From an uncultured Bacillus sp. (GTDB lineage Bacteria > Bacillota > Bacilli > ZCTH02-B2), in NCBI GenBank assembly GCA_947085265.1, contig CAMTVR010000012.1, positions 178,180 through 242,179 of the forward strand: a stretch of 64,000 bases of DNA, in the 5' to 3' direction. Positions 30,692 to 48,226 of the stretch are shown here, in pieces. The notes under the pieces were generated by a model. That model saw only the letters and a list, made by a program, of their open reading frames with translations, was not told the DNA's origin and did no database searches. The translations under genes were made by a program, and so were the position numbers. The stretch's first letter is position 1; each line of letters starts with the position of its first letter.

Positions 30692-30744
30692 ATCCAATGA
30701 GCCTCCTTTCCTCACTTTCCTTCCTCCAAAGTTCAAGACTGAGC

Positions 30745-31458
30745 TCATTCCGCTTCTTTCGGGAGCAAGAGGTGTTTCCACTTGGGAAATTCCTCATTGG
30801 CCCTCGTGAAATCCGCCGGCTGGCCGATGTCCATCCAGAACGCATCATTTTCATAATGCCGAACCGTCTCTCCTTTTTCCAAAAGCGCTTGGATCAGATC
30901 TGGGATGTCGAAAAACTGCCGTTCCGGGATGTACTCAAGAATGAGTGGATCCATCATGTAGATCCCCATACTGACATGGGCATTGCGCAGCGGTTTCTCG
31001 ATGAATCGGATGACACGTTCTCCCTCCGTCTCCAGCACACCAAGGTTGATGGGCACGTGTTTTTGTTGCGATGCGACGGTCATGATGCTGCGTCCGGACG
31101 TGTGAAACTCCCAGAACGCACGAAACGACAATGTGGTCAGTATATCGCAGTTGATGAGCAAAAACGGCTCGGACAAGTGGGTGAGCGTCTTAAGCGGTCC
31201 TGCCGTCCCGCGGGGTTCCGTTTCCACCTGATAGGCAATCGAGACGCTCCACGCACTCCCGTCGCCAAAATAGCTCTGGATCAAGGAAGCCCGATAACCG
31301 CATGCCATTGTGATGTTGGTGAAACCGTGGTATTGGAGCTGTTTCACGATGATTTCCAGAATCGGCTGATCTCCTACCGGCAAAAGTCCTTTGGGCAGCA
31401 CCTTGGTGTACGGCATCATGCGTACGCCTCTGCCCCCGGTCATGATGACAGCATCCAC
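30745..31458 (-). CDS. sugar-1-phosphate nucleotidyltransferase (NTP_transferase; short RmlA/RfbF/HddC-like)
   Basis: MTGGRGVRMMPYTKVLPKGLLPV nucleotidyltransferase signature; GTG start 15 nt after the upstream stop with GAGAGGGGGAA RBS. Confidence 0.8.
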   Translation of the reverse strand: MDAVIMTGGRGVRMMPYTKVLPKGLLPVGDQPILEIIVKQLQYHGFTNITMACGYRASLIQSYFGDGSAWSVSIAYQVETEPRGTAGPLKTLTHLSEPFLLINCDILTTLSFRAFWEFHTSGRSIMTVASQQKHVPINLGVLETEGERVIRFIEKPLRNAHVSMGIYMMDPLILEYIPERQFFDIPDLIQALLEKGETVRHYENDAFWMDIGQPADFTRANEEFPKWKHLLLPKEAE

Positions 31459-31473
31459 GGTTGATTCCCCCTC

Positions 31474-32466
31474 TCACACGATGTACTCGGTCGGACGCTG
31501 ATATAAGTGCTTGTGGCGCATCATCCAGTCAATCGTCCGCTGCAGGCCTTCTTCCAGAGTCACAGATGGCTTCCATCCCAAGACGACTGCTGCCTTGCTG
31601 CTGTCAGAAAACAGCCGATCCACTTCGCTTTTTTTCGGCCGTAGCCGGTTTTGATCCACCCGCACCGGCAAATCCCGGCCCATTCGCTCGAGAATCATGC
31701 GGGCCAAATCCCGCACCGAGATTTCAAACCCGGAACCGACGTTGAACAAATCGCCGACCGCTTTGTCCTCTTCGGCCGCGTATAGAAACGCCCGCACGGT
31801 ATCTTCCACAAAAGTGTAATCTCGTGTTGGCGACAAGTTTCCCAATACTATTTCCGAGCGGTGAAGGGCCTGGTTGATAATCGTCGGAATGACCGCCCGC
31901 ATGGACTGATGCGGACCGTAAACGTTGAACGGGCGAATGGTTACCACTGGCGTGTTGTACGAACAGTGGAAGCTCTCTACAAGCTTGTCGGCCGCTATTT
32001 TGCTTGCCGAATACGGAGACTGTCCCTGAAGCGGATGGGTTTCGTCCATTGGCACGTAACGTGCAGTGCCGTACACCTCGCTCGTCGACGTGTGTACCAT
32101 GCGGGGAATGCCCAGATCCCGGACCGCCTGGAGCACGTGCAAGGTGCCGAGCACATTGGTCTCGACGACTTCTGTGGGGTTACGGTAAGAATACGGGATG
32201 GCGATCAGCGCGCCAAGGTGAAACACCGCATCGACACCCTTCACAGCCTGATAAACCGCTTGAGGGTCCCGCAAATCTCCCTTGACAACCTCAATTTCCT
32301 TGAGTTGATCGGCCGGCAGATGCTCGAGAAACCCGAGCGTATTGAGCGAATGGTAGCGCACAAACGCGCGGACGGTCGCGCCAGACATGACGAGCAGCTG
32401 AGTCAGGTGGCTGCCGATAAAACCAGATGACCCCGTCACCAGCACTGTTTTTCTTCTGATGTCCAT
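31474..32466 (-). CDS. NAD-dependent epimerase/dehydratase family protein (extended SDR, RmlB-like sugar 4,6-dehydratase or 4-epimerase)
   Basis: TGSSGFIGSHL Rossmann motif, TSTSEVYG, YSASK catalytic Tyr/Lys; start ATG 32466; the ORF track N-terminal extension is rejected. Confidence 0.75.
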   Translation of the reverse strand: MDIRRKTVLVTGSSGFIGSHLTQLLVMSGATVRAFVRYHSLNTLGFLEHLPADQLKEIEVVKGDLRDPQAVYQAVKGVDAVFHLGALIAIPYSYRNPTEVVETNVLGTLHVLQAVRDLGIPRMVHTSTSEVYGTARYVPMDETHPLQGQSPYSASKIAADKLVESFHCSYNTPVVTIRPFNVYGPHQSMRAVIPTIINQALHRSEIVLGNLSPTRDYTFVEDTVRAFLYAAEEDKAVGDLFNVGSGFEISVRDLARMILERMGRDLPVRVDQNRLRPKKSEVDRLFSDSSKAAVVLGWKPSVTLEEGLQRTIDWMMRHKHLYQRPTEYIV

Positions 32467-32512
32467 CTTCTTTCCCAACCCTTCTGATGCAGTTGTTCTT
32501 GATGCCTGTGTA

Positions 32513-34494
<1,982 letters not shown>

Positions 34495-35859
34495 TTACCC
34501 TTTTTGTATTCCATTCCGGATCTCTTCCCAGGACAAAGCGAGATGAACCGTATCTTCTTCCGACTGGTTTCCGAATTGCACTTCGATGATGTCCAGATCT
34601 TTGGAAGCTATGACGGCGTGCCTGGCTCCGGCCGGAAGTTCCCATACAGCGCCCGGACAAATGGAGAAAATCCGTCCGTTCAAGACCAATTCCCCCTCTC
34701 CGGCCGCCACGATCCACACCTTGCGGCAATGCGTGTGATACCGATAGCTGAGATGCTTACCCGCGCGGAGATGGATTTTCCGGGTCAATGCTTCATGATT
34801 CTGATCATCCAATACGCGAGACCAGCCCCAGCCCCGTTCCTCATACTTCACGCGTTTGGCAATCGCTGGTGCGGCATTTTTCACGAGGTTGCTCTTGGCT
34901 TTGTCCGCGACCAGGATTCCGTCCGGGCTCGCAGCAACCACCACATCCGAAACGCCAATCGTGACCACAGGAATTTCCAATTCGTTCAGAATGTGCACAT
35001 TCTTGCAGTCCACGCATTTTGCAAACGCTTCGTCTGTTCCGTCCATCTCCTGCGTGATTTCATTCCAGGTGCCCAAATCTTTCCAAAAACCAGAATAAGG
35101 AATCACCACCGCCTGACTGGCGTTTTCAACAATTTCATAATCAAAACTGATTTTTGGCAAATTCCCATATTCCTGCAGCATTTTTTCATAGTCCGTGGGC
35201 CACCCTCTTTTGGCCAATTCTTGGATCACATCACCCAACCGGAAGGCAAAAATGCCGCTGTTCCACAAGGCACATTGCGTGAAAAGCTGGTGCATCTCCC
35301 GCTCCTGCGGTTTTTCCTTAAAATACTGCACTTTTTGGTAGGCGATTTCAGAAGCCAGGTCCGTCTGTTCCCCGGAGGGAACAATGTAGCCGTATTGGGA
35401 TGACGGGTAGGACGGCGCTATGCCAATCAGGGCAAGTGCCGCGCCCGAGTGATGAATCACTTCCTCCAATTGTTTCATCTTCACAAAAAACGCATCGTCC
35501 GCATGAAAATCGACAGGCATCACTGTGATTACATCCGAACAATCGACACGCTGTTTTGAATAAAAATACGTTGCCGCCAATGCGATTGCCGGGAATGTAT
35601 CCCGTGGTTCAGGCTCAATGATCAGTGGCACTTCAGTTCCCAACTGATCGTGCACGAGATCGACATGCGTTTGCGACGTTGCAATGTACGCATCACTGGA
35701 CGGCAGATGTTCCTCCAGTTTTCTCCAGGTCCGTTGAACCATGGACTCTTTTTCGCCTTTTGGATGATGGAATATTTTTAAAAACGGTTTGGAACGCAGA
35801 TGATGGGAGAATGGCCACAACCTTTTTCCTGATCCCCCCGCAAGGAGCACCAATTTCAT
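34495..35859 (-). CDS. manC: mannose-1-phosphate guanylyltransferase / mannose-6-phosphate isomerase (type II PMI-GMP, ManC/XanB)
   Basis: LAGGSGKRLWP nucleotidyltransferase N-terminus plus C-terminal cupin (PMI) domain; ATG 35859 with GAGGTG RBS. Confidence 0.85.
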   Translation of the reverse strand: MKLVLLAGGSGKRLWPFSHHLRSKPFLKIFHHPKGEKESMVQRTWRKLEEHLPSSDAYIATSQTHVDLVHDQLGTEVPLIIEPEPRDTFPAIALAATYFYSKQRVDCSDVITVMPVDFHADDAFFVKMKQLEEVIHHSGAALALIGIAPSYPSSQYGYIVPSGEQTDLASEIAYQKVQYFKEKPQEREMHQLFTQCALWNSGIFAFRLGDVIQELAKRGWPTDYEKMLQEYGNLPKISFDYEIVENASQAVVIPYSGFWKDLGTWNEITQEMDGTDEAFAKCVDCKNVHILNELEIPVVTIGVSDVVVAASPDGILVADKAKSNLVKNAAPAIAKRVKYEERGWGWSRVLDDQNHEALTRKIHLRAGKHLSYRYHTHCRKVWIVAAGEGELVLNGRIFSICPGAVWELPAGARHAVIASKDLDIIEVQFGNQSEEDTVHLALSWEEIRNGIQKG

Positions 35860-36075
35860 TGTCCGCACCTCTATCCCCTTCGCTTTTACGACCATCATAT
35901 GTACAGGTGTGAAAAGGTGATCTATCCCACCCCGCAAAAATGGTCGTCTTTCCCGAGATCTCGTGCGGCATGTGCAACCGTCCAATCCAAACAAGCGGCA
36001 GGATCATATGGTAAAAGTGTTCACGCGCCAAGTTGATATGGCAAGAACGTCAAAAAACCTGGGAAGGGGATGAAC

Positions 36076-36921
36076 ATGGGCGGTTTATGGACAGACGAGG
36101 AGATCCTTGAAGCCATCCATCAGCGCAGATGGTATCACAAAATACCCATTCGTCCCGGCATCACAACCCCCGGCAATGATTACGACAGATTGTGGGACAT
36201 TATCCGTGCCGCCAGGAAACATATTGACTACACAGGAAAAAGAGTGCTCGACATCGCCAGTTTTGATGGCTTGTGGGCGTTTGAAGCCGAGCGGCTGGGG
36301 GCGAGCTTTGTCGTTGCCACGGATTGCTATCAGCCGGCTTTTGCGAATTTCGCGTTATGCAAGGAGATCCTAAAAAGCAATGTCGTTCCACTATACAACG
36401 TCTCCCCGTATTCCTTGTGGGACGGACTGAAAGTGATTCTGATGGATGACGAATCGACACCGCTTCCTTATCCGCAGCAAGTTCGCCACAACTTGTTCGA
36501 TATTGTTCAGCACCTCGGCCTGTTATATCACGTGCGGGATCCTCTGATGACTTTGTCTCAATCACGGAGCGTCATCAAGACAGGAGGGTTCTTGCTTCTG
36601 GAAACAGCGGCCATTTTGAACCCTGGAGAATCATTGATGGTGTACAACGGTCCGCCGGAGAACAAAAAACGCATTTACCTGGATGTGACCACGTGGTGGA
36701 TCCCGACCATCCAGTGTGTGATGGAAATGCTGAAAACCACACTGTTTGAGCCAATGCCGGAAACCATTCACATTCTTGAAGATCAGCCAATCAGCGGGTA
36801 TCCGCTCGGACGTATGGCCGTCGTTGCAAAAGCCGTTCCCGGGCATGCGATTGCCCAAGATACCTACAAAGAGCTGTTGCGCACCTTCCGCAATCCCGGC
36901 CTGGTCCCGGAATACCTGTAA
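36076..36921 (+). CDS. DUF1698/CmoB-like class I methyltransferase-fold protein
   Basis: block similarity to CmoB (WYH.I.....TPG; GKRVLD...; ...LYH...PL; LLETxxI), but the glycine-rich SAM loop is degenerate (DIASFDG instead of GxGxG); ATG at 36070 or 36076 after GGGAAGGGG. Confidence 0.55.
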   Translation: MGGLWTDEEILEAIHQRRWYHKIPIRPGITTPGNDYDRLWDIIRAARKHIDYTGKRVLDIASFDGLWAFEAERLGASFVVATDCYQPAFANFALCKEILKSNVVPLYNVSPYSLWDGLKVILMDDESTPLPYPQQVRHNLFDIVQHLGLLYHVRDPLMTLSQSRSVIKTGGFLLLETAAILNPGESLMVYNGPPENKKRIYLDVTTWWIPTIQCVMEMLKTTLFEPMPETIHILEDQPISGYPLGRMAVVAKAVPGHAIAQDTYKELLRTFRNPGLVPEYL

Positions 36922-36976: not shown

Positions 36977-38188
36977 TTGGCAAGCGAGGTGTGGCCTTTG
37001 TCTGCTCCTTTGGTTAGCGTCATTACCACATCGTATCACCGCGCCCGGTTTATCCGGGAGACGATCGAAAGCGTTTTGCAGCAGGATTATCCTTTCATTG
37101 AACACATCGTGGTGGACGGAGGATCGACGGACGGCACGGTGGAGATCCTGCAACAATACAGCCAACGCGGCGACCGTTTTCGTTTCGTCTCCGAACCGGA
37201 CCGTGGGCAGTCGCACGCGGTGAACAAGGGACTGGCCATGGCGCGGGGCGAGATCATCGGGTGGCTGAATTCGGACGACACTTATGTGCCGGGAGCCGTA
37301 AAAAAAGCGGTGCAGGCGTTTCAGCGCCATCCGGACTGGGCGATGATCCACGGCAGGGCATTTTTCATCGATGAGAACGGTCATGGACAAGGGCCAGTCG
37401 GTTATACCGCCCCCATCGACTTCGACAAATTGTTCCACGGATGTTTTGTCTCCCATCCGACAGTTTTTATCAGGAAAAGCGTGTTCCAACAAATCGGGGG
37501 AGCGGATGAAACCCTCAAATTTTGCTTGGATTACGATGTGTGGATTCGGATCGCCAGGAACCACGTCATCGGGTTTATCGACGATTTTCTCGCCAATTAC
37601 AGAGTTCATCGCGGCTCACAGACAAACCGCGAATGGAAAACAGTCGGCATTCCCGAGATCTTGAAAATCATCGCAAGGCATTACGGCACGGTTTCAAAAA
37701 CCTGGATGTCGATCTATTTAAGTGAAATGGAGGATAGAAACGTTTTTCAGATTTTGCGTCGCTTTCAAGCTGCCTCGTTGTTCGGCAATCCGCCGAAAAT
37801 CACAAGGATGAACAGGCACGAAGATTTCAGTGTTCCTCCCTTGTTCCGGATCACATTGGCATCGGATCCTGGATTCCCGATGAAAATGCTGCTTGTCAAA
37901 GGCAGGATGCTGGCTTCACGAATGTATGATGCGCACAAGTTCACGTGCACCGTACTGGTAAATGGACAAACGGTCAGGAATTACGACATCACAACATCCC
38001 CGTTCGTTTTTGAAATCCCGCTTCCCCCGGATCGCGCGGTCAATCAAGTGGACATTCTTTCCTCAAAGTTCTCCATGGCGGACCACTCCGACGCGAGAAA
38101 GCGGAGCTTTGTTGCGGAGGAGGTGATCCCCCTCTCCCGCACCGAAGCCGAGATTTATCGCACGCATCTTAAACCTCTCCTGGTTTAA
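36977..38188 (+). CDS. family 2 glycosyltransferase (GT-A fold) with a roughly 180-aa C-terminal domain of unknown function; paralog A
   Basis: SVITTSY...DGGSTDGT...NSDD motifs; highly similar to the next gene. Confidence 0.8.
   Translation: MASEVWPLSAPLVSVITTSYHRARFIRETIESVLQQDYPFIEHIVVDGGSTDGTVEILQQYSQRGDRFRFVSEPDRGQSHAVNKGLAMARGEIIGWLNSDDTYVPGAVKKAVQAFQRHPDWAMIHGRAFFIDENGHGQGPVGYTAPIDFDKLFHGCFVSHPTVFIRKSVFQQIGGADETLKFCLDYDVWIRIARNHVIGFIDDFLANYRVHRGSQTNREWKTVGIPEILKIIARHYGTVSKTWMSIYLSEMEDRNVFQILRRFQAASLFGNPPKITRMNRHEDFSVPPLFRITLASDPGFPMKMLLVKGRMLASRMYDAHKFTCTVLVNGQTVRNYDITTSPFVFEIPLPPDRAVNQVDILSSKFSMADHSDARKRSFVAEEVIPLSRTEAEIYRTHLKPLLV
37045..37297 (+). repeat. direct repeat copy 1 (5' region of GT2 paralog A); near-identical to 38351-38603
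   Basis: long stretches of identical DNA (for example gcgttttgcagcaggattatcctttcattgaacacatcgtgg...ggaggatcgacggacggcacggtgga) shared between the two tandem genes. Confidence 0.8.
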
Positions 38189-38299
38189 TGCGGTGAACAC
38201 GCGTTTTTCGGGAAGCGACGAATGGGAACGCGCGCGCCAGCCGGCGCCATTGGAGGTGCCCGCTTAACCCACTAAACTGAAAGCGATGGAGTGATCGAG

Positions 38300-39616
38300 A
38301 TGGCCCATCTTCCGCTGGTGAGCATCATCACGCCCAGCTACAACCGAAGCCGTTTTATCCGGGAGACGGTCGTGAGCGTTTTGCAGCAGGATTATCCTTT
38401 TATTGAACACATCGTGGTCGACGGAGGATCGACGGACGGCACGGTGGAAATTCTGCAACAATACAGCCAACACGGCGACAGGTTTCGCTATGTCTCGGAA
38501 CCGGACCGCGGCCAGTCGCACGCGATCAACAAGGGGCTGGCCATGTCTCGGGGCGAGATCATCGGGTGGCTGAATTCGGACGATACGTATCTGCCAGGCG
38601 CCATCCGCAAGGCCGTGCGCGCGCTGCTGCAGCATCCCCACTGGGCGATGGTGCATGGCTTGGCTTACGTGACGGACGAGCGGAGCCAGCGGCGGTCCGC
38701 TTATTCGGTGGAACCGGTGGATTACCAGAAATTGTTTCATGGTTGCCGCATCTGCCAGCCCACCGCCTTTATTCGCAAGGATGTCTTTCAACAGCTGGGG
38801 GGAGTGGATGAGTCACTGCACTTTTGCATGGATTATGATCTCTGGATCCGGATCGCCAAACGGCACACCATCGGGTTTCTCGATGAATATTTGGCCACTG
38901 CCAGAGTCCACCCGTCAGCCAAAAGCGTGACGCATTGGAAATCCATCGGCCTTCCCGAGATCCTGCAGACCATTTCCAAGCATTACGGAACCGTCTCCAA
39001 TGATTGGCTGCAATTGTTCCTGTCGCAACACGCGGATAAAGACATTTTCTGGTTGTTAAACCGCTTCAAGGATTATTCAGTTTTTGGAATTCCGCCAAAA
39101 ATCAGCAACATAAACCGATATGCCGATTTCTGGGTTCCCGCCCGATTGGTCATGACCGTGGAGGCGGATCCGGGGTTTCCCTTGCACGCCTTGCTGCTCA
39201 AGGGGAGGGTTCCCCTGTCCGCCTTCCCGTCCGCCCACAGGAACAAATATCGGCTCACTGTTCTTTTAAACCGTAAAATCACCGGCACCTTTTTCATTGA
39301 CCAGGAATCCTTCACTCTGGAAGTCCCTCTTCATACTTCCCAGTCATCCAACCACATTGAAATGATGTCATCCCACTTCATCCCTTCCGGGCATCCCCTG
39401 AACCCTCATCAGACGCCGCTCAGCTTTCTCGCCGACGACGTCATTCCTCTTTCCCGCAAGGAAGCGGAATTTTACCGCGTCTATCAGCGCTCTCCATACC
39501 TGGCTGCAGCTTGGATCTGGCAAAACAGGCAGCCTGTTCCTTGCCCGCCATCGCTTCAAGAAAATCCCTTTCGGAGCGGAACTGGAAGCACCCACGACGG
39601 GGAGGACACTGGATGA
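38300..39616 (+). CDS. family 2 glycosyltransferase with divergent C-terminal extension; paralog B
   Basis: N-terminal roughly 100 aa about 90% identical to paralog A, then diverging; ATG 38300 after GGAGTG RBS. Confidence 0.8.
   Translation: MAHLPLVSIITPSYNRSRFIRETVVSVLQQDYPFIEHIVVDGGSTDGTVEILQQYSQHGDRFRYVSEPDRGQSHAINKGLAMSRGEIIGWLNSDDTYLPGAIRKAVRALLQHPHWAMVHGLAYVTDERSQRRSAYSVEPVDYQKLFHGCRICQPTAFIRKDVFQQLGGVDESLHFCMDYDLWIRIAKRHTIGFLDEYLATARVHPSAKSVTHWKSIGLPEILQTISKHYGTVSNDWLQLFLSQHADKDIFWLLNRFKDYSVFGIPPKISNINRYADFWVPARLVMTVEADPGFPLHALLLKGRVPLSAFPSAHRNKYRLTVLLNRKITGTFFIDQESFTLEVPLHTSQSSNHIEMMSSHFIPSGHPLNPHQTPLSFLADDVIPLSRKEAEFYRVYQRSPYLAAAWIWQNRQPVPCPPSLQENPFRSGTGSTHDGEDTG
38351..38603 (+). 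repeat. direct repeat copy 2 (5' region of GT2 paralog B)
   Basis: see copy 1. Confidence 0.8.
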
Positions 39617-40629
39617 AAATTGTCATTCCAATGGGCTACCTGCACCTGGGCGGCGGGTGCAAAGTGCTGGTTGAGACCGCAAATGCGCTGGCCGCGCGCG
39701 GGCACGAGGTGGAACTGTGCCCGTTGCGGGTGCTGACGCAGATGTACCCTGTTCGCTGCAAACTGACCCCCATTCCCGTGCTGTCGAGGGAGTACATCCC
39801 TTACGGGGACATTGTTTTGCCCAACTTTTACACCACGTTTCGCCCCGCTTATTCCGCCTGGCCCGCCCAGACCGTGCGGCTCAGTCTGGGGTTTGAACCG
39901 TACTGGGTGCCCGACCCGAAGGAGGCGCTGTGGACGTACCGGCAAGGCGTGCCGATCCTCTCCATCTCCCGCTGGCTGGATGAGCAGATCCGCAAGCATG
40001 CGGGGCAACGCAGCACAGTGGTCAATCCGGGTGTCGATCTGACCGTATTCCACCCCGGTCCGAAATTGAAGACGTTCCGAACAGATAAACCAAAAGTCAT
40101 CATGTACATCGCCCGCGATCCCGGCGCGGGGTATCAATTGAAAGGGTTTCACGATTTCGTCGCCAGTCTGCAAATATTGAAAAACTGGTACCCTGATTCC
40201 TTTGTCGTGAACCTCGTGTGCCCCGAAAAGAAACTCGGCGTGCCGGGCATTCCGCATCAGGTTTATTCGCCGGCAAGCGACGCGGAAATGGCGCAACTGT
40301 ATCGGGAGGCCGATATGTTTGTCTCGTCGTCCTGGTTTGAAGGGTACTCCCTTCCCCCGCTGGAAGCAATGGCCTGCGGAACACCGGTGGCGACCACCAA
40401 TTCCGGCGGCGTGCTGGACTACTGCACCCATCTGCAAAACGGCTACATCGTGCCGCCGCGCAACCCGGTATTGCTCGCCGAGGGGATGCACGCCGTGCTC
40501 ACCAATGGTACCCTGTACAACAAGCTGGTGATCGGGGGGCTGCAGACAGCGAAGCGGTTTTCCAAAGACCGTTTTGAACGAGAAATTGTCACTGCCCTGG
40601 AAGCCATTTTTGAGGCGCGAATGCGCTGA
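39613..40629 (+). CDS. family 4 glycosyltransferase (GT-B, Glycos_transf_1)
   Basis: EGYSLPPLEAMACGTPV (EX7E motif); ATG 39613 overlaps the previous stop as ATGA. Confidence 0.8.
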   Translation: MKIVIPMGYLHLGGGCKVLVETANALAARGHEVELCPLRVLTQMYPVRCKLTPIPVLSREYIPYGDIVLPNFYTTFRPAYSAWPAQTVRLSLGFEPYWVPDPKEALWTYRQGVPILSISRWLDEQIRKHAGQRSTVVNPGVDLTVFHPGPKLKTFRTDKPKVIMYIARDPGAGYQLKGFHDFVASLQILKNWYPDSFVVNLVCPEKKLGVPGIPHQVYSPASDAEMAQLYREADMFVSSSWFEGYSLPPLEAMACGTPVATTNSGGVLDYCTHLQNGYIVPPRNPVLLAEGMHAVLTNGTLYNKLVIGGLQTAKRFSKDRFEREIVTALEAIFEARMR

Positions 40630-40686
40630 TTCCACAGGATCGGGAAATCCTTGAGAACTGCGCTCATGGGAGGGAGGGATTTTTCT

Positions 40687-41388
40687 GTGCGCATTGCACC
40701 GAAGGTTTCGGTGGTCATCCCGTTTTACAACTGCGCGTACGTGAATCAAGCCATTGAAAGCGCCCTGAACCAGAGTTACCCCCACATTGAGGTGATTGTC
40801 GTCAACGACGGTTCGACTCGGCACGTCGAGAAAATTACGCCGTACGTTCACCGGATAAGGTACATCGAAAAGGCCAACGGAGGCACGGCCAGCGCCCTGA
40901 ACGCAGGAATCCGCAACGCTTCCGGAACGTATTTCGCCTGGCTGAGTTCGGACGATTTTTACGACAGGCACAAAATTGCCAGCCAGATAGCGTTCATGCA
41001 ATCCGCCAGTGCCTTCGCCAGCCACACCGCTTTCTACTTCATAGACGCACACAATCGTATACGCCGCCCCACTCCCTACACCGTTTTTGGAAACCGGATC
41101 GATTTTTTTGAACAAATGAAACATGGTTGCCTGATCAACGGTTCCACCGTCATGCTCAGCATGGACGTGTTCGACCACGCAGGACTGTTCGACGAATCGC
41201 TCCGCTATGCGCATGATTACGAATTCTGGCTGCGCGTTCTGATGAGATACGACTTCCTTTACATGCCGCAACCTCTACTCTACTACCGCGTCCACAGTGA
41301 GATGGGATCAGGCAAATTCGCGCCGCAGCTGGCTAGAGAAACGCTGCTCGTCCGGCAAAAATACCAAAACATGGTTATTCATCCGTAA
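40687..41388 (+). CDS. family 2 glycosyltransferase
   Basis: VSVVIPFYNCAYVNQAIESALNQSYPHIEVIVVNDGS...LSSDD; GTG 40687 after GGGAGGGAGGG RBS (the ORF track start at 40651 is also possible). Confidence 0.75.
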   Translation: MRIAPKVSVVIPFYNCAYVNQAIESALNQSYPHIEVIVVNDGSTRHVEKITPYVHRIRYIEKANGGTASALNAGIRNASGTYFAWLSSDDFYDRHKIASQIAFMQSASAFASHTAFYFIDAHNRIRRPTPYTVFGNRIDFFEQMKHGCLINGSTVMLSMDVFDHAGLFDESLRYAHDYEFWLRVLMRYDFLYMPQPLLYYRVHSEMGSGKFAPQLARETLLVRQKYQNMVIHP

Positions 41389-41411: not shown

Positions 41412-41759
41412 TTACTCCAAGTATAGCTTTGTCTCCACGACGGCCGCCGCGCCGGCCGCGGCCAGCACGACCAGGATGGGAAAAGCGGCCGGCACCAAGA
41501 AGTACAAGGCAACGATCGCTGTGGAAGACCAGATGCCGACACACCAGTGACAGCTGAGGAGTATCCCTAGCCAGCGGCGAAAGCCTGAACCCTTCAGGTG
41601 GATGTGCCGTACCACCTGGCCGGAAGGGTCGGCTTCATAGGAAACGCTGAAAAACGGTTCACGCAAAAACGACATGATGTCGTCATAAACAATCAAATGT
41701 GTCAAACGAAAGCTGGCCAATACGATAATCACGAGATGGAGCCACGTCATCTCAAACAT
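41412..41759 (-). CDS. DUF1360-family small membrane protein
   Basis: about 115 aa, two to three TM helices, HLIVYDDI motif typical of Bacillus DUF1360 proteins; ATG 41759 with GAGGAAG RBS. Confidence 0.5.
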   Translation of the reverse strand: MFEMTWLHLVIIVLASFRLTHLIVYDDIMSFLREPFFSVSYEADPSGQVVRHIHLKGSGFRRWLGILLSCHWCVGIWSSTAIVALYFLVPAAFPILVVLAAAGAAAVVETKLYLE

Positions 41760-41862
41760 CAGTTCCACTTCCTCGTTAAGATTTGTTCCTGATTCACGCG
41801 CGATGCAAAAGCCGGACATGCCTGAAAAATTCACAGGCCTGTGCGCGCCGTTTTTTGTTTCG

Positions 41863-43140
41863 TCAGCACGACACCGCGATCCGATTGTTGGAGGAAAATT
41901 GCACCTGCTGTTCGCGGAAAAAGATGAATCCTTCGATCGTCACGCTGTTGCCGGATTCCGGTGTCATCACGGTCATCTGGAAGTTTTGGAAAGGATGGAC
42001 TTCCTTTGGCGCGATACGCACCGGCTGAACCGGAGCGATCCAGTACTCCCCCCGCTCCTTTGCCTTCTCAAACCAGTCTTCCTCCAGAAATCTCCAGCCC
42101 CTTACACCCATAGGACTTTGCACGCCGAGCGTCTCCACCATGTTGGCCGGCAAAATCTGCCCGCCCAGTTTGACGCTGCCAGGGGGATCGGCGCGCAAGC
42201 AAACGACCGGGTTGATCAATGCTTCCGTTCCTGTATTTTTGACATATAGGTTTCCGAAGATCAAAAACGGCTTACCCTCGATGTCGGAGCGGAGCACGGT
42301 GTAATCAAAAAACACCTCGGCAGCCAACTCTCCCTGTTCCGGCAGCCGGCTTGCTGCTTCGTCGATCGGCTCGCCGACCGGCTTCTCCCAGGCACTGGGC
42401 AACCTCCGTGTTTCCCTCTCCCCCTTCTCGAGCATCGGGGGTGTTGCCGCCAACATCCGCAAAACAGCGGGAGTCAGACAGGAGAGTGGCGAGATTTGCT
42501 GTTCTGTCAGCAAGTAGCGAAGGATGCCGGACGCGAAAAAGAAGGCTATCCGCTCTGCCCACTCCTTCCAGGCCGTTTGCGCCATGCTGGTCGGAAGCTG
42601 GCAGCAAACCTCGACAAATGCGTGGAACGGCTGGCACCCGCGCCGCCATTCGGTTGCGCACGGTATCCCCGCGCTCTTCCATTCTGTCTCCAGACAGTGC
42701 ACCAATGCTTGGTTGCACCGGCTTTCATGCTGAATGATAGTCATTCGGGGCGGAAGCCCGATGTCTGCCTTTTCGATGGTAAATTGTACGCATACATCCT
42801 TCTGTTCCGGCCAGTCCAACCGGTTCGGCGACAGAGCGACGCTCACCCCAGCGGCGGTGAGAAATCGTTCCGTCAGTGCCAAAATGTCCCGTTCATGTGG
42901 ATGGAAATCGGTTGCGGCGGGAACCTGTCGGTGCCTATCCTCCAGCACACACATTTTCCCTTTGAGCCCCGGCGCGAGAACAATCCTGTTTTCTTTTGGC
43001 TCCCACTGAAAGTGAAACCCGCTTTCTTGACAAAACAGACGAAAGGCAGGCAGTGATGTGAAAGGGATCGTCCCACACGTTTGACCAGCGTAAAAAACCG
43101 CAACATCATCCATCCCAAATCCCCCTTCTTTATCGGTCAT
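41863..43140 (-). CDS. hypothetical protein (425 aa, Cys-containing central region, no recognisable domain)
   Basis: long ORF with GAGGGAGGGG RBS 7 nt before the ATG at 43140; co-directional with the DUF1360 gene. Confidence 0.55.
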   Translation of the reverse strand: MTDKEGGFGMDDVAVFYAGQTCGTIPFTSLPAFRLFCQESGFHFQWEPKENRIVLAPGLKGKMCVLEDRHRQVPAATDFHPHERDILALTERFLTAAGVSVALSPNRLDWPEQKDVCVQFTIEKADIGLPPRMTIIQHESRCNQALVHCLETEWKSAGIPCATEWRRGCQPFHAFVEVCCQLPTSMAQTAWKEWAERIAFFFASGILRYLLTEQQISPLSCLTPAVLRMLAATPPMLEKGERETRRLPSAWEKPVGEPIDEAASRLPEQGELAAEVFFDYTVLRSDIEGKPFLIFGNLYVKNTGTEALINPVVCLRADPPGSVKLGGQILPANMVETLGVQSPMGVRGWRFLEEDWFEKAKERGEYWIAPVQPVRIAPKEVHPFQNFQMTVMTPESGNSVTIEGFIFFREQQVQFSSNNRIAVSC

Positions 43141-43250
43141 TCCGCATCCCCTCCCTCTTCCCCTCTTGCTTCATAGGCTGCTACGTGTTCATTGTATGTA
43201 CGCCCATCAGAAAGAGTGCCGGTCGGTGCGAATGCCCGCGGCAAACGGGT

Positions 43251-43277
43251 ACCTGCGCTCGGTTTTGGCATAGGATG
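43251..43277 (+). promoter_or_regulatory. possible mother-cell sigma-K-like promoter (AC-16nt-CATAGGATG) upstream of the ppGalNAc-T-like gene
   Basis: matches AC-N16/17-CATANNNTA except for the final base; by sequence only. Confidence 0.25.
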
Positions 43278-43299: not shown

Positions 43300-44181
43300 A
43301 TGTCTGACGGACACATGCCTTTTGTTTCCTTAATCATTCCGGCCAAAAACGAAGGGAATAACGTGCGTGCGACCGTTGAATCGGCATTACGCGTAAAAAC
43401 CCACCACCCTTTTGAGATCATCATCGTGGATGATGGTTCTACAGACGGATGCTGCGCGTTTTTGGCATCCGGAGAAAACGAACAGATCAAATTAATCACG
43501 ACTCAGGGAATTGGGGCTGCCCCTGCCAGAAACCTGGGTGCTGAGCATTCACTGGGAGAATACCTCATCTTTTGCGACGCCCACTTGTTCTTCCAGGACT
43601 ATTGGATGGATCAGTTGCTGGGACTGATCCGGACGGGACAAGCGAACGCCGTGTCCCCCGGCATCGCTTCGACAAACCGGCCGAATCTCGTCGGGTACGG
43701 CCAGACACTGAACCGCATGTTGGGCGTACAGTGGAACCGGCAAATATCCGTTCCCGCACCTACGGCGATTCTGCCGGGCGGATGTTTGGCCATGACGAGA
43801 GACGTCTTCTTCGATGTGGGCGGATTTGATCGGGGATTTCAGGTTTGGGGGTTTGAAGATGTGGAGATCTCGCTCAAGCTGTGGCTATTTGGCTACCAGT
43901 GCTACGTGCAGCCGGCAGTCAAGGTGTTCCATCTGTTTCGCGAATCTCACCCGTACCGCGTGACATTCGACCACGTATACTACAACATGCTTCGGATGGC
44001 CTACAGCCATTTTAACGAATCTCGGATCGCCTCTTGCCGCAGCTTGATTCACCACGCAGATCCAGCCCGGATCGAGGAAGCTGTATTGGCTGGTGGCGTG
44101 CTGGAACAGCGGAAACGCTACTTCGCGCGCCGGAAGTACGACGACGAATGGTTCATGCGCCGGTTCGGAATCCCGTTCTGA
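43300..44181 (+). CDS. GT-A glycosyltransferase resembling the catalytic domain of polypeptide N-acetylgalactosaminyltransferases (GT27-like / GT2; no lectin domain)
   Basis: block-wise match to the ppGalNAc-T catalytic domain: EIIIVDDGS, FCDAH (DxH), Gal/GalNAc-T motif WGFEDVEISLKLWLFGYQ (compare WGGENLEISFRVWQCGG), and HLFR (compare HVFR). Confidence 0.7.
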   Translation: MSDGHMPFVSLIIPAKNEGNNVRATVESALRVKTHHPFEIIIVDDGSTDGCCAFLASGENEQIKLITTQGIGAAPARNLGAEHSLGEYLIFCDAHLFFQDYWMDQLLGLIRTGQANAVSPGIASTNRPNLVGYGQTLNRMLGVQWNRQISVPAPTAILPGGCLAMTRDVFFDVGGFDRGFQVWGFEDVEISLKLWLFGYQCYVQPAVKVFHLFRESHPYRVTFDHVYYNMLRMAYSHFNESRIASCRSLIHHADPARIEEAVLAGGVLEQRKRYFARRKYDDEWFMRRFGIPF

Positions 44182-44311
44182 GAACACTGCGGATGGGAAA
44201 ATATACCTGGAATATTCACCTAAAAAATAGGCGTTTGTTTACAAGCAAAATGCCCTCCTCAACATAGTATGTATTGCGTAAAACACCACCTAGGAAAGGG
44301 AGGGTTCATAA

Positions 44312-45571
44312 TTGGTAAGGCAAATCAGACCCATCAAGGGTTTTCAAGTTCCGACGCCGACGCCGACCGCACCCGCGCCGATTCCGAACAATCTGCAAGA
44401 AGAATGCATCCGCGTTCAAAAGGTGTACGACTGGGTCGTGACCGCGAACCGGGATCAAAACAAAGTTCAAATTCCTAGCGACTGTCTGGCTCTTGTCAAC
44501 GAAGCCATCCAGGCCGGGCAAAATATCACTGTTCAATGTGTGGAGCCGGTCATCCCTTCACCATTCCCGATCATTCCGAAACCGCAGCCGACGCAGGGAC
44601 TCGACTTCTCCTGCCGGATCATCAGCATTCGCCGGGAAAACATCGTTATCGGGGGCAACGTCGTCCGGGTCGGCATTGTCCGCTTTCTCTTCAGTGCTAC
44701 GCTGCTGATCCGTGTTTTTGCCGACGGCACGCTGTTATGCGAATTTCCAGCCACTGTCCAGTTCGACGATGAAATCGTGCTCTGCCTGCCAGAACCGCTC
44801 GACGAAGACAACATCCTCTGCCGGATTACCGCGGTTGAGTGCACGCCGCTGGAGCCCATCCTTGGCGGCCAAATTCTGATTGACGTGGTCATTTGCAAAG
44901 AAATCCAGGTGGAAGCGGAAGTGAAGCTGGAGGTATTGGCAAAATTTTGCCAGCCTCGCCCAGCCGACATACCCGTACCGACACCCACGCCGCCAGCATT
45001 CCACTGCCCACCAGTCATCTTCCCGGCACAATGCCCAGAGATCTTCCCGCGTCAAAACTGCGACTGCCAGGCAACTGCCAACGTCATTCTCACCAATTCG
45101 ACCGTGCTGTTTGACGGCGTAGCGGAAGTCGGCACGGAACAATTAATAGCCGAGATCTGCCCGAACTGCAATCCGGGAGACAGTACCTTCTCTTATACCT
45201 TTGTCGACACGATCTCACCCACACCGACACCCACGCCTACCGACGAAGTCCCTGGCGATTTCAGCTTCGTCTTCACACCGGTACAAATCAGTACACCTGT
45301 TTGCTCAGCGATCCCTGGCGGCGGCCTGCAGGCCGTGGTCACCGGTACAGGAACCCGCACATTCACCGCAACCGGCACACAGGATACCCTTGCCTACGAG
45401 CTAACGCTGCGTGAACTGCCCGGCCTCACGGACGAATACCGCCTCATCCTGCGCAACGCGCTGGGTGCCATCGTCTTCGACACCGGGTTCAAGACAGTTC
45501 CGGACGCCAACCTCATCGTCCAAGACTGCATCACCTTCCCGGATGTCATTCCGGCGCCATCTGTGCCCTAA
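44312..45571 (+). CDS. cysteine-rich three-module protein with Thr-Pro linkers (TPTPT), no signal peptide; candidate glycoprotein substrate / spore-surface structural protein
   Basis: TTG start 7 nt after GGAAAGGGAGGG RBS; three TP-rich linkers (VPTPTPTAPAPIP, IPVPTPTPP, ISPTPTPTPTDE) separate Cys-rich modules; own terminator downstream. Confidence 0.65.
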   Translation: MVRQIRPIKGFQVPTPTPTAPAPIPNNLQEECIRVQKVYDWVVTANRDQNKVQIPSDCLALVNEAIQAGQNITVQCVEPVIPSPFPIIPKPQPTQGLDFSCRIISIRRENIVIGGNVVRVGIVRFLFSATLLIRVFADGTLLCEFPATVQFDDEIVLCLPEPLDEDNILCRITAVECTPLEPILGGQILIDVVICKEIQVEAEVKLEVLAKFCQPRPADIPVPTPTPPAFHCPPVIFPAQCPEIFPRQNCDCQATANVILTNSTVLFDGVAEVGTEQLIAEICPNCNPGDSTFSYTFVDTISPTPTPTPTDEVPGDFSFVFTPVQISTPVCSAIPGGGLQAVVTGTGTRTFTATGTQDTLAYELTLRELPGLTDEYRLILRNALGAIVFDTGFKTVPDANLIVQDCITFPDVIPAPSVP

Positions 45572-45594
45572 TCCAAATCACGCGCACAAACATG

Positions 45595-45630
45595 CGGGAG
45601 AACAACAGATTCTCCCGTATTTTCATTTCT
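45595..45630 (+). terminator. rho-independent terminator after the Cys-rich protein gene
   Basis: CGGGAGA-loop-TCTCCCG stem followed by TATTTTCATTTCT. Confidence 0.7.
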
Positions 45631-45741
45631 GTGTACCAAGAAACAAGAAAAGAGAAGGTTTACCCGTTGTCTTTATGCACATTTTCCTCCCTGTTACATA
45701 TGTCTATAGGGAAAAGCACACGGAATGGAGGAAAATATGCG

Positions 45742-47779: not shown

Positions 47780-48226
47780 ATGCTGCCGGCTGCTGCGGAC
47801 GACGCTCTTTACATTAACGCAACGGGAGGCGTTTTTCCGGTAGCCCAACGTGTCTGGGATGAAATGGTGAGGCATTGCCTGGAACAACTGCCAAATGAGG
47901 CATGTGGGCTCCTTTCAGGAAAGCGCGGTAGAGCAGAAACGATCTGGAAGATGGATAACATGGAGCACAGTCCTGTTTCATTTTCAATGGACGAGGGACA
48001 AATCCGAAGCGTATTTCATGGATTGGACAAAATGGGTGAAGAGCTGGTTGGGATTTATCACTCCCATCCGACTGCGCCCGCCTATCCTTCCCCGCATGAC
48101 ATGGAACACGCAACTTACCCGGAGGCGGCGTACTTGATCGTTTCCCTTGCCAACCTTCAACCATGGGTCGGGTGCTTCCGCATCCGCGGGAAGCAAGCTA
48201 TCCCTTTGCCCATTTTCATTTTTTGA
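47780..48226 (+). CDS. Mov34/MPN/PAD-1 (JAMM) family metalloprotease-like protein
   Basis: EACGLL...YHSHP....SPHD JAMM motif (E-x(n)-HxH-x(7)-S-xxD); start uncertain (ATG 47780 or 47864). Confidence 0.7.
   Translation: MLPAAADDALYINATGGVFPVAQRVWDEMVRHCLEQLPNEACGLLSGKRGRAETIWKMDNMEHSPVSFSMDEGQIRSVFHGLDKMGEELVGIYHSHPTAPAYPSPHDMEHATYPEAAYLIVSLANLQPWVGCFRIRGKQAIPLPIFIF

Follow-up and report, generated by a model that had tools for sequence, protein, structure and literature searches.

A GalNAc-transferase-like glycosyltransferase encoded beside a Thr-Pro-linker coat protein in a predicted spore-surface locus of an uncultured Bacillus sp.

Spore-surface glycans control the adhesion, hydrophobicity, dispersal and immune recognition of spores. 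To our knowledge, very few of the enzymes by which spore proteins receive their first sugar have been identified (SgtA of C. difficile and probably CgeB of B. subtilis), and SgtA is the only characterised spore enzyme of its kind. The C. difficile gene sgtA sits immediately upstream of bclA3 and codes for an Mn2+-dependent GT-A enzyme of 358 amino acid residues, with a WcaA-like GT-A domain and C-terminal TPR repeats, which O-glycosylates Thr in the GPT repeats of BclA3; its product is beta-O-GlcNAc, and UDP-GalNAc is rejected (PMC7157674). Spore-crust glycosylation in B. subtilis has been connected with CgeA Thr112, with CgeB/CgeD and with the sps, yfn and ytc genes (PMC13577073, PMC7439481), CgeA being reported to be glycosylated at that residue (PMC13577073). 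Protein-linked GalNAc is found on Bacillus spores, as BclA of B. anthracis carries GalNAc-Rha3-Ant (PMC10050317). BMQ_0737 of Priestia megaterium QM B1551 is described as a morphogenetic protein of the outermost coat/exosporium (Manetsberger 2014, as cited in PMC4656864), and the GFP-tagged protein was placed in the outermost spore layers, where it was antibody-accessible (PMC4656864). No report of its glycosylation was found in the accessible literature on BMQ_0737.

The window (the whole stretch of 64,000 nucleotides that was analysed, from an uncultured Bacillus sp.) contains a gene for a soluble glycosyltransferase next to a gene of the BMQ_0737 family (Table 1). Judged by its gene content, this is a spore-surface locus, a predicted late-sporulation cluster and not a free-standing "mucin system"; cotE and spoVK are located ∼28 kb upstream. 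Because of this late-sporulation setting, the enzyme is most likely a spore-surface glycosylation enzyme. The sugar-nucleotide genes and further transferases that the original prediction had named upstream were recovered as a set of seven minus-strand genes and four glycosyltransferases. Of the products of the sugar-nucleotide genes that were tested, not one scored as high as the GalE (4-epimerase) cut-off.

Table 1. Coordinates of the features of the locus within the window.
Feature	Position	Strand	Basis or remark
293-aa soluble GT-A glycosyltransferase gene	43300..44181	+	translation, Pfam, PDB search, alignments, AlphaFold2 model
419-aa Cys-rich (18 Cys) BMQ_0737-family morphogenetic spore coat protein gene	44312..45571	+	NCBIfam NF052457
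Thr-Pro segment 1, PTPTPT, aa 14-19	44351..44368	+	predicted disordered N-terminus of coat protein
Thr-Pro segment 2, PTPTPP, aa 223-228	44978..44995	+	inter-domain linker of coat protein
Thr-Pro segment 3, SPTPTPTPT, aa 302-310	45215..45241	+	low-confidence loop, coat protein C-terminal region
Sigma-K-type promoter motif ACCTGCGCTCGGTTTTGGCATAGGAT (AC-N16-CATAnnnT)	43251..43276	+	24 nt 5' of the glycosyltransferase ATG
Promoter-like element, TTTACAAGC ... CATAGTATGTA, 5' of coat-protein gene	44238..44273	+	conserved in alignment
Terminator-like hairpin and T-run	45592..45620	+	just 3' of coat-protein stop codon
425-aa protein gene, divergent from enzyme gene	41863..43140	-	most constant neighbour of the enzyme family
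DUF1360 membrane protein gene	41412..41834	-	Pfam PF07098, 6.1e-32
Prok-JAB / M67-type metallopeptidase gene	47780..48226	+	Pfam PF14464, 1.1e-23
GT2 paralogue with ∼200-aa C-terminal extension	36977-38188	+	tandem with 38291-39616
GT2 paralogue with ∼200-aa C-terminal extension	38291-39616	+	tandem with 36977-38188
GT4 gene	39613-40629	+	one of four further glycosyltransferases in 36977..41388
GT2 gene	40651-41388	+	one of four further glycosyltransferases in 36977..41388
Sugar-nucleotide and modification genes	27765..36921	both	upstream of enzyme gene
RmlD-like reductase; WecB-type 2-epimerase/PseB-FnlA-type 4,6-dehydratase fusion; nucleotidyltransferase	within 27765-35994	-	
LegB-like dehydratase; Gmd; Fcl-like synthase; ManC-like guanylyltransferase	within 27765-35994	-	
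Methyltransferase	36070-36921	+	

The ATG at position 43300, with GGAAGGAAGGAG just before it, agrees with the starts of the homologues; a longer TTG start at 43192 found no support. The translated protein contains the motifs FEIIIVDDGSTDG, IFCDAHLF, VWGFEDVEISLKLWLFGYQCY and VFHLFRESHPY. By Pfam, it was matched to Glycos_transf_2 (PF00535, 4.9e-26; 92.1 bits against a gathering threshold of 23.3) and Glyco_transf_7C (PF02709, 8.5e-8), the identical pair that makes up the GT27 catalytic region. When all PDB sequences were searched with phmmer, the best match was human GalNAc-T2 (E 2.5e-21, enzyme residues 6-220), followed by T10, T1, T9, T12 and T4, and a profile built from 17 sequences of the enzyme family matched GT27 chains with E values from 1e-26 to 1e-29 over profile positions 5-242. 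In the AlphaFold2 model (pLDDT 95.4), the predicted GT-A fold superposes over all 293 residues on that of GT27 (for example, human GalNAc-T2, PDB 2FFU/4D0T); only GT27 chains were among the 50 best Foldseek matches listed, with query-normalised TM scores of 0.75-0.84, and the C-terminal 75 residues correspond to the GT27-type helical region. The closest solved relatives by sequence and predicted fold are all eukaryotic GT27 enzymes, yet they are only 23-25% identical. The resemblance to polypeptide GalNAc-transferases is well above chance, and it is real but not exclusive, because bacterial GT2 profiles score similarly: the NCBIfam profiles MftF (84 bits) and EpsD (79 bits) were about as high as GalNAc-T2. 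All 22 matches to named bacterial GT2 equivalogs (MftF, EpsD, PgaC, TuaG and others) were far under the NCBIfam cut-offs, the top one being MftF with 84.4 bits against 280.

The original prediction of a lectin-less protein resembling the ppGalNAc-transferase catalytic domain was corroborated by these motifs, the phmmer match and the superposition of the model; every sequence feature that it named was found at the coordinates given. The signal anchor, stem and ricin-type lectin domain of GT27 are all missing. Neither a ricin-type lectin domain nor TPR repeats were found by Pfam, the chain stops at residue 293, and no hydrophobic segment that would provide an anchor or stem was found (maximum 19-residue Kyte-Doolittle mean of 1.02, and of 0.31 for windows starting at residues 1-15). 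A signal-peptide-like N-terminus was found neither in the enzyme nor in the 419-aa neighbour. The cytoplasmic location proposed at the outset was retained with a correction: given the BMQ_0737-family neighbour, cotE upstream and the sigma-K-type motifs, the cytoplasm would be that of the mother cell in sporulation, whereas GT27 enzymes are in the Golgi.

As shown by the alignment with GalNAc-T2, the metal triad of the enzyme, D93-x-H95 and H211, corresponds to D224/H226/H359. These three residues were invariant across 56 aligned sequences, and DxH (not DxD) was found in 55 of 61 representative clusters of the ∼300-aa family, whereas related giant multi-domain bacterial transferases carry DxD. 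Equivalents of D176, R208, I253 and F361/R362 of GalNAc-T2 are present. I253, one of the residues that line the GalNAc N-acetyl pocket of GalNAc-T2, has its counterpart in I122, which does not vary in the 17-sequence alignment; at the position of the pocket residue L310 there is an invariant Cys, at that of A307 a Pro, and AGGL reads PGGC. The Gal/GalNAc-T-type motif, W183-G-F-E-D-V-E189, was matched by PF02709. Relative to WGGEN of GalNAc-T2, it reads WGFED, the second Gly position being variable and the Asn335 position being an invariant Asp, as in inverting GT7/GT2 enzymes; in inverting beta4Gal-T1 this position is the catalytic base. A beta linkage would be no less probable than an alpha linkage, the kind formed in true mucin-type glycosylation. 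Of the GalNAc-T2 peptide-groove residues F280, W282 and F361, only F361 is kept (as F213), and the 15-residue loop with F280 and W282 is a gap in the enzyme. Since this loop is absent, the acceptor preference is not transferable from GT27, and together with the invariant Asp its loss meant that the label "mucin-type" (alpha-GalNAc) in the original prediction was not upheld.

The neighbouring protein scored 103.7 bits with NF052457 (cut-off 71), its residues 32-246 covering profile positions 2-198 of 199; 171 homologues were found, and its model (pLDDT 81) has no close solved fold. It is Cys-rich and over the family cut-off, like BMQ_0737, and differs from it by the added Thr-Pro linkers and a C-terminal module. 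The predicted linkers were located as three Thr-Pro segments, which fall in the low-confidence (predicted disordered) stretches of the model (residues 1-33, 208-245 and 305-313). Many homologues have Thr-Pro repeats at the position of segment 1 too, and the linker equivalent to segment 3 contained some Pro, Thr or Ser in every case. Three or more consecutive [TS]P dipeptides were found in all 16 BMQ_0737-like genes abutting the glycosyltransferase gene versus 42 of 120 family members overall, although the 16 do not count as independent events because direct adjacency is mostly confined to one clade. Thr-Pro repeats were absent from ten BMQ_0737-like ORFs linked to the glycosyltransferase, and in B. 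xiapuensis the enzyme gene adjoins a Thr-Pro-poor homologue, so these repeats are not a constant trait of the neighbour. At two loci with Thr-Pro-less homologues (Fictibacillus, Halobacillus), there was no such enzyme gene within 10 kb. The comparison of Thr-Pro content with enzyme presence gave a mixed outcome in a sample that is too small.

The motif AC-N16-CATAnnnT, assigned to sigma-K on the basis of the B. subtilis consensus, was found at most 120 nt upstream of the enzyme orthologue in 27 of 79 genomes (34%). Among the remaining ORFs of these loci it occurred in 10.4%, and in random windows in 1.7%. A separate AC-N17-CATACAAT motif is present upstream of the 425-aa protein gene. The 130-bp spacer between the glycosyltransferase and coat-protein genes showed no terminator-like site. 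A CATAG[TGA]ATGTA box and an upstream T(T/G)ACAAGC were conserved in 14 aligned sequences, namely the window and 13 loci where a BMQ_0737-like gene directly follows the glycosyltransferase gene. The -10-like box resembles promoters of mother-cell sigma factors, while the assignment of the -35 is uncertain. In a scan for sigma-70 promoters, nothing rose over background.

Named members of the family share 50-90% identity with the enzyme encoded in the window and were found almost only in endospore-forming Bacillales; with orthologues in distant genera, its identity is 50-70%. There was no B. subtilis orthologue among the matches listed. A search of PLSDB for copies on P. megaterium exosporium plasmids gave only one match, on a 690-kb Cytobacillus spongiae replicon, where the cluster is beside cotE. 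Neighbourhoods were counted in 79 genomes (loci) carrying the enzyme gene, with 6 kb around it considered for BMQ_0737-like and GT2 genes. A BMQ_0737-like gene was present within this distance in 30 genomes and absent in 49; it was within 150 bp in 16 loci, and in 15, which make up essentially a single Brevibacillus-type clade, it came directly downstream on the strand of the enzyme gene. The 425-aa protein gene was more constant (36 of 79 loci, adjacent in 25), and the idea of a dedicated enzyme-neighbour pair was therefore given up. A 267-aa coat-like family contributed 10 adjacent copies, a Prok-JAB / M67-type gene was found in 29 of 79 loci and also in loci L083, L085 and L086, and DUF1360 was co-located in 16 of 79. 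Different Bacillales families repeat this neighbourhood of BMQ_0737-like, 425-aa, JAB and DUF1360 genes. Another GT2 gene was found within 6 kb in 49 of the 79 loci (adjacent in 17), and a second transferase with Glyco_transf_7C is located ∼100 bp or less 3' of the enzyme gene in many Bacillaceae; spore-surface protein genes (425-aa family, BMQ_0737-like, collagen-like) and other glycosyltransferase genes flank the enzyme gene about equally often. The 425-aa protein, for which no Pfam, NCBIfam or PDB match was found even with a 20-sequence profile, is highly conserved in its C-terminal ∼150 residues.

Directly downstream of the enzyme gene, B. infantis has genes for collagen-like GxT proteins; in Radiobacillus, such genes are within ∼1.2 kb. 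The arrangement is like that of sgtA-bclA3. On a plasmid-like P. megaterium contig, the enzyme copy is followed by a VPTGTIN-repeat protein, and the B. pseudomycoides copy has unrelated neighbours. A Thr-Pro-rich ORF in locus L078 was discounted as a partner, as it encodes a secreted PG-binding/CAP protein. In longer relatives, the enzyme module is fused only to other glycosyltransferase domains and never to protein-binding domains; these fusions do not discriminate between the hypotheses. An exhaustive representative search, in clusters without taxonomy, revealed a very large bacterial superfamily around the enzyme and no clear bridge to eukaryotic GT27. The literature search found no bacterial GT27-like spore enzyme and no experimental data for any member of the family.

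Compared by its published description, SgtA shares with the window enzyme a soluble GT-A architecture and a gene directly 5' of that of a spore-surface protein; it is metal dependent, and the enzyme here keeps the conserved DxH and His metal-binding site. The acceptor Thr is beside Pro in repeats in BclA3 (GPT), as are the candidate TP sites in the 419-aa protein. The two differ in that SgtA has TPR repeats in place of the GT27-type helical region, and the acceptor families are collagen-like in C. difficile and, as a candidate, BMQ_0737-like here. The B. subtilis crust likewise has an outermost-layer protein glycosylated in the mother cell on Thr in a flexible loop, with sugar-nucleotide and transferase genes clustered with coat genes, but CgeA is unrelated to BMQ_0737, and CgeB is described as belonging to the UDP-glycosyltransferase superfamily, with N- and C-terminal domains that flank a sugar-nucleotide pocket, and is not a GT-A enzyme.

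We lean, at somewhat below an even chance, towards priming: the enzyme would act in the mother cell as a protein O-glycosyltransferase and put the first sugar on proteins of the coat and exosporium, by analogy with SgtA-BclA3. The soluble, metal-dependent GT-A enzyme would be made in the mother cell late in sporulation, bind a UDP-sugar via its D93-x-H95 and H211 metal site and transfer one sugar to outer-coat or exosporium proteins, at Thr/Ser hydroxyls in their disordered, Pro-rich segments, the likeliest acceptors in this organism being the three Thr-Pro segments of the adjacent protein. Other transferases of the locus would then extend this primer with GDP-6-deoxyhexose and UDP-2-acetamido-6-deoxyhexose-type donors encoded upstream, and the outcome would be a hydrophilic glycan layer on the spore surface. 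We infer the protein acceptor, its identity with the neighbour and the order of glycan assembly. Points in favour of priming are the protein-O-glycosylating GT27 relatives, the family-specific DxH, the distribution in spore formers, the sigma-K-type motif, the position downstream of cotE and spoVK, the coat and collagen-like neighbours, the Thr-Pro runs of the abutting BMQ_0737-like genes, the predicted disorder of the Thr-Pro segments, and the SgtA and CgeA precedents. It is also quite conceivable, though we hold it with less confidence, that the enzyme elongates or branches a glycan of the same spore-surface pathway and that priming, if any, is performed by another transferase of the locus. 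The tandem GT2 enzymes may be such candidates, as their extra C-terminal domains are reminiscent of SgtA with its GT-A plus TPR layout, and they are equally plausible as the protein-priming enzymes. Adjacency mostly limited to one clade, the 49 of 79 loci lacking a BMQ_0737-like gene, Thr-Pro-poor neighbours and fusions only to transferase domains speak against priming by the GT27-like enzyme. The lost GalNAc-T peptide-groove loop, the GT27-like scores of the MftF, EpsD and PgaC profiles (with non-protein acceptors), and the frequent GT2 and Glyco_transf_7C genes nearby do so too and favour elongation, as does the wide occurrence of GT2 plus Glyco_transf_7C with the E-D dyad and third His in bacterial glycan builders, giant multi-domain ones included. 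A conserved glycan acceptor accounts for the identity kept across distant genera no less well than variable protein linkers do. Elongation is, however, opposed by the full-length sequence and fold similarity, which is best to protein-modifying GT27, by the DxH common to the enzyme and GT27 but not to the multi-domain relatives, by structural spore proteins outnumbering transferases as immediate neighbours, and by the repeated location of the enzyme gene beside proteins with Thr-containing repeats in different lineages.

The original prediction taken strictly, with a true mucin-type enzyme that is dedicated to the neighbouring protein and acts as a retaining UDP-GalNAc:polypeptide alpha-GalNAc-transferase, appears improbable. 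The best match to GT27, the conserved DxH and His triad, the invariant I122 and the protein-linked GalNAc on B. anthracis BclA (PMC10050317) would fit it, but the Asp at the WGGEN Asn335 position, the Cys and Pro at L310 and A307, the lack of a GalE-level product among the sugar-nucleotide genes tested and the non-exclusive pairing do not, and SgtA makes beta-O-GlcNAc and rejects UDP-GalNAc. Least probable of all, and in our view very unlikely, is an ordinary vegetative cell-wall or exopolysaccharide GT2 located beside a coat-protein gene by chance: public annotations read "glycosyltransferase involved in cell wall biosynthesis" or "family 2", and GT2 enzymes are abundant in every genome, yet the family is almost confined to spore formers, sigma-K-type motifs are enriched upstream, the neighbourhood recurs across Bacillales families, and the enzyme is without a membrane segment, unlike most wall-polymer synthases.

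If the priming reading is true, a conserved GT27-like enzyme in many Bacillales would be a third priming enzyme family. The reading predicts that three short Thr-Pro segments of a single coat protein carry sugar, which is easily tested. More broadly, and doubtfully, the enzyme may belong to a widespread family of polypeptide O-glycosyltransferases, bacterial and specific to sporulation, which among prokaryotes would be the closest counterpart of GT27. The morphogenetic coat and exosporium proteins of endospores would then have short Thr-Pro domains that resemble mucins, and a GalNAc-T-like core without lectin domain would prime them in the cytoplasm of the mother cell. Priming by this enzyme would then bear on the origin of the eukaryotic enzymes that initiate mucin-type glycosylation and would make available a scaffold, small, soluble and free of a lectin domain, with which Thr-Pro linkers could be glycosylated. 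Should the enzyme elongate a glycan instead, the locus would still be a compact, well-delimited model of a spore glycan pathway.

The 293-aa GT-A glycosyltransferase begins at the ATG at 43300, which is preceded by a ribosome-binding site (GGAAGGAAGGAG) and is the start shared by its homologs. All motifs quoted in the original prediction (FEIIIVDDGS, FCDAH, WGFEDVEISLKLWLFGYQ and HLFR) were found in the translation. Pfam assigned a Glycos_transf_2 domain (4.9e-26) and a Glyco_transf_7C domain (8.5e-8, residues 153–203), the same pair from which the catalytic region of the eukaryotic polypeptide GalNAc-transferases (GT27) is built; no ricin, TPR or further domain was detected by Pfam, in line with the predicted lack of a lectin domain. 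When the enzyme was used to search PDB sequences, human GalNAc-T2 ranked first (E 2.5e-21, residues 6–220), followed by T10, T1, PGANT9, T12 and T4. The enzyme-family profile matched GT27 chains over positions 5–242 (E 1e-26 to 1e-29), and in non-GT27 GT2 structures it covered the N-terminal nucleotide-binding half only. The AlphaFold2 model, built from a 56-sequence alignment (pLDDT 95.4, pTM 0.92), had only GT27 chains among its 50 best Foldseek matches, with query-normalized TM scores of 0.75–0.84, so the C-terminal helical region (residues 220–293) also lies within the shared fold. The profile searches and the structural model that had been proposed as checks both gave a GT27-like enzyme, and this likeness is confirmed, far above chance. 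The bacterial profiles MftF (84 bits), EpsD (79 bits) and PgaC (62 bits) scored in a range similar to GalNAc-T2, but far under their cut-offs, and the enzyme therefore belongs to none of these families.

Residues were mapped onto GalNAc-T2 by a HMMER alignment to 2FFU (chain index + 70 = GalNAc-T2 numbering). The Mn2+ ligands D224, H226 and H359 of GalNAc-T2 correspond to D93, H95 and H211, invariant in the 56 family members. Its D176 (D45 in the window enzyme) and F361-R362 (F213-R214) were also invariant, as was I253 (I122) in a 17-sequence alignment, and R208 (R77) was R or K in the family. In contrast, the GalNAc-T2 stretch lvfkwdymtpeqrrs, with the peptide-groove residues F280 and W282, is a gap in the window enzyme. 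A307-G-G-L310 is replaced by P159-G-G-C162 and W331-G-G-E-N335 by W183-G-F-E-D187, with C162 and D187 invariant; the N335 position is that of D318 of the inverting beta4Gal-T1, its proposed catalytic base. The DxH of GT27 is thus paired in this family with the E-D dyad that typifies inverting GT-A enzymes, a combination from which stereochemistry is not deducible. A motif census covered 149 retrievable of the 150 closest representative clusters listed by an exhaustive search, aligned to the family profile. Among the ∼300-aa proteins, DxH was present in 55/61, Asp at 187 in 53/61 and the distal His in 57/61, whereas the related giant multi-domain transferases carried DxD; DxH is thus a distinctive feature common to the family and GT27. 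A larger bacterial GT2 branch shares the E-D dyad as well as the distal His.

The neighboring protein matched NCBIfam NF052457, “BMQ_0737 family morphogenetic spore coat protein”, with 103.7 bits (cut-off 71 bits; residues 32–246). In Priestia megaterium spores, BMQ_0737 belongs to the outermost layer; its GFP fusion was located at the outer coat or exosporium and was antibody-accessible (PMC4656864). The Thr-Pro segments of the window protein are PTPTPT (residues 14–19), PTPTPP (223–228) and SPTPTPTPT (302–310), and the candidate acceptor peptides are QVPTPTPTAPAPIP, DIPVPTPTPPAF and ISPTPTPTPTDEVP. In its structural model (pLDDT 81), these three segments fell within low-confidence stretches (1–33, 208–245 and 305–313) flanked by confidently modelled beta-rich modules, for which no close solved relative was found; the expected Thr-Pro linkers between modules were thereby borne out. 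Two or three of these positions also carry Thr-Pro repeats in homologs from Brevibacillus, Salibacterium, Alteribacillus, Rossellomorea, Cytobacillus, Pontibacillus, Aliibacillus and Peribacillus; the repeats were missing in Fictibacillus, Halobacillus and some others, and at least three consecutive [TS]P units occurred in 42/120 homologs. Elsewhere, mostly in Brevibacillus, the BMQ_0737-type module (residues 1–220 of the window protein) is joined to beta-propeller (YncE), HYR, Kelch, DUF11 or choice-of-anchor A domains (homologs P0127, P0128, P0152, P0156, P0164, P0204 and P0205). An N-terminal module with such varied partners was read as a spore-anchoring unit, which suggests a spore-surface anchor that may present interchangeable C-terminal domains.

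Features of the spore-surface locus in the window
Feature	Position	Strand	Length	Description
cotE	14846-15424			
COOH-NH2 ligase	15605-17026	+	473 aa	protein with phage phiEco32-like type 2 ligase domain (PF14395, 8.4e-83); between cotE and mutS
Fusion protein	28616-30781	-	721 aa	WecB-type UDP-GlcNAc 2-epimerase + PseB/FnlA-type 4,6-dehydratase; adjoins RmlD-like reductase
Tandem GT2 paralogs	36977-38188, 38291-39616	+		each with ~200-aa C-terminal extension without Pfam match
425-aa protein	41863-43140	-	425 aa	
Sigma-K-type pattern	43251-43276			ACCTGCGCTCGGTTTTGGCATAGGAT; 24 nt before enzyme ATG
GT27-like enzyme	43300-44181	+	293 aa	
Coat protein	44312-45571	+	419 aa	18 Cys, 39 Thr, 48 Pro
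BMQ_0737-type module	44312-44970			
Hairpin + T-run	45592-45620			behind coat-protein gene
Coiled-coil ORF	45592-47499	+	635 aa	highly repetitive, E/K/Q-rich
JAB/M67 peptidase	47780-48226	+		Prok-JAB/M67 metallopeptidase

The first block of the window contains rny, a ymdB-like gene, miaB, cotE, mutS, mutL, miaA and spoVK. The second encodes Gmd, an Fcl-like synthase, a ManC-like enzyme, a LegB-like dehydratase with a nucleotidyltransferase, the WecB–PseB/FnlA fusion and an RmlD-like reductase, and is followed by a methyltransferase gene; the third comprises four glycosyltransferase genes, including the two tandem GT2 paralogs. The sugar-nucleotide and glycosyltransferase genes claimed to lie upstream were thus both present, and the fusion protein with the reductase looks like a compact UDP-2-acetamido-2,6-dideoxyhexose route (FucNAc, QuiNAc or RhaNAc type). 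After the minus-strand genes for DUF1360 and the 425-aa protein, the last block consists of the GT27-like gene, the coat-protein gene, the coiled-coil ORF and the JAB/M67 peptidase gene. The coiled-coil ORF has weak relatives in 19 loci, and its real start is probably further downstream, since its annotated ATG overlaps the hairpin. The surroundings of 43300–45571 are a spore-surface glycan and protein locus. As anticipated, no signal peptide or membrane segment was detected in the enzyme or the coat protein; a reaction between the two would be cytoplasmic, with the refinement that, in such a locus, the cytoplasm is that of the mother cell.

The sequence upstream of the enzyme gene fits AC-N16-17-CATAnnnT, the B. 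subtilis sigma-K consensus. Such a pattern was found within 120 nt upstream of the ortholog in 27/79 loci, mostly 22–41 nt before the start; the background rates were 1.7% for random windows and 10.4% for the remaining ORFs of these loci (Fisher p 1.4e-7). A separate CATAG[TGA]ATGTA box precedes the coat-protein gene and is kept in 14/14 aligned sequences (the window and 13 loci with the coat-protein gene directly after the enzyme gene), and no terminator-like site was found between the two genes. The enzyme is very probably a spore-surface glycosyltransferase made late in the mother cell, and a function outside the spore is highly improbable.

At E ≤ 1e-10, 772 relatives of the enzyme were found, of which the best 120 were ∼293 aa long and 53–90% identical to the window protein; named sources among these were Brevibacillus, Paenibacillus, Alicyclobacillus, Ammoniphilus, Priestia, Neobacillus, Lysinibacillus, Bacillus pseudomycoides and other spore formers. 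For synteny, the proteins of the window were compared by tblastn with 79 genome loci, and matches up to 6 kb from the enzyme gene were counted. The most constant neighbor was the 425-aa family (36/79 loci; adjoining in 25, usually divergent), for which no Pfam, NCBIfam or PDB match was found. Its C-terminal ∼150 residues are highly conserved (AEVFFDYT..GNLYIKNTGTE..GGQILPPN..GEYWI..SNNRI), its gene has its own sigma-K-like motif, and the protein could serve the enzyme as partner, scaffold or acceptor. BMQ_0737-like genes were present in 30/79 loci, 15 of them directly downstream on the same strand (Brevibacillus and one related MAG); in other Bacillaceae and Thermoactinomycetaceae they lay 1–5 kb away in varying order. 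The two genes adjoin in the window, but among the 79 loci direct succession on the same strand was limited to those 15. In B. xiapuensis the coat-protein gene comes first and the enzyme gene second. Other neighbors were collagen-like GxT proteins (directly downstream in B. infantis, 1.2 kb off in Radiobacillus), a 267-aa coat-like family with PTPTPT in Alicyclobacillus and, on a plasmid-like contig of P. megaterium, a VPTGTIN-repeat protein following an enzyme copy.

DUF1360 was found in 16/79 loci and the JAB peptidase in 29/79; the peptidase gene accompanies those for the enzyme, the coat protein and the 425-aa protein, also in loci L083, L085 and L086, across Brevibacillaceae and Bacillaceae, and in Cytobacillus spongiae the same four-gene set adjoins cotE. 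A second GT2 gene lay within 6 kb in 49/79 loci, adjoining in 17. In many Bacillaceae, a Glyco_transf_7C transferase of ∼210–230 aa, named “galactosyltransferase-related” in RefSeq, follows the GT27-like gene by ∼60–130 bp (L083, 10228–10923; L018, L035, L046, L047, L054 and L062), and the two could form a two-step enzyme pair; in the window, no such gene directly follows. L054, a record titled Pseudomonas sp. ISL-84, also contains Bacillus-type spore-coat-like genes, and its assembly is probably contaminated or mislabelled.

That the enzyme primes Thr in the linkers of its neighbor has a little less than an even chance. This reading draws on its exclusive full-length similarity to the protein-modifying GT27 enzymes and the DxH common to both, on the finding that in several lineages its gene recurs beside those of spore proteins whose repeats contain Thr, and on the Thr-Pro repeats carried by 16/16 BMQ_0737-like genes within 150 bp of the enzyme gene. 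The C. difficile pair SgtA–BclA3 provides the precedent: SgtA, a GT-A enzyme that depends on Mn2+, has its gene directly upstream of that of its acceptor and places beta-O-GlcNAc on Thr of GPT repeats (PMC7157674).

Against priming, adjacency is mostly that of one clade, Thr-Pro-poor neighbors exist, the loop of the peptide groove is missing, GT2 profiles for non-protein acceptors score as high as GT27, and the enzyme module is fused elsewhere only to other transferase domains. Moreover, the tandem GT2 paralogs of the same locus, each a GT-A domain with an extra domain, recall SgtA and are two other candidates for protein priming. The main rival, on which the enzyme elongates a glycan, is somewhat less likely than priming. 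A strictly mucin-type system, with alpha-GalNAc transferred by a dedicated pair, is improbable; the GT27-type DxH is accompanied by the inverting-type dyad, and the neighbor varies.

O-glycosylation of spore-surface proteins in the mother cell is already known from BclA, from BclA3 with SgtA and from CgeA with CgeB: B. anthracis BclA bears GalNAc-Rha3-Ant (PMC10050317), and B. subtilis CgeA with CgeB represents spore-surface protein O-glycosylation (PMC13577073). Literature searches found no paper describing a lectin-less GT27-like family of spore formers. What is new is this conserved, uncharacterised family together with a candidate acceptor family, and the hypothesis of a GT27-like spore-surface enzyme is easily testable.
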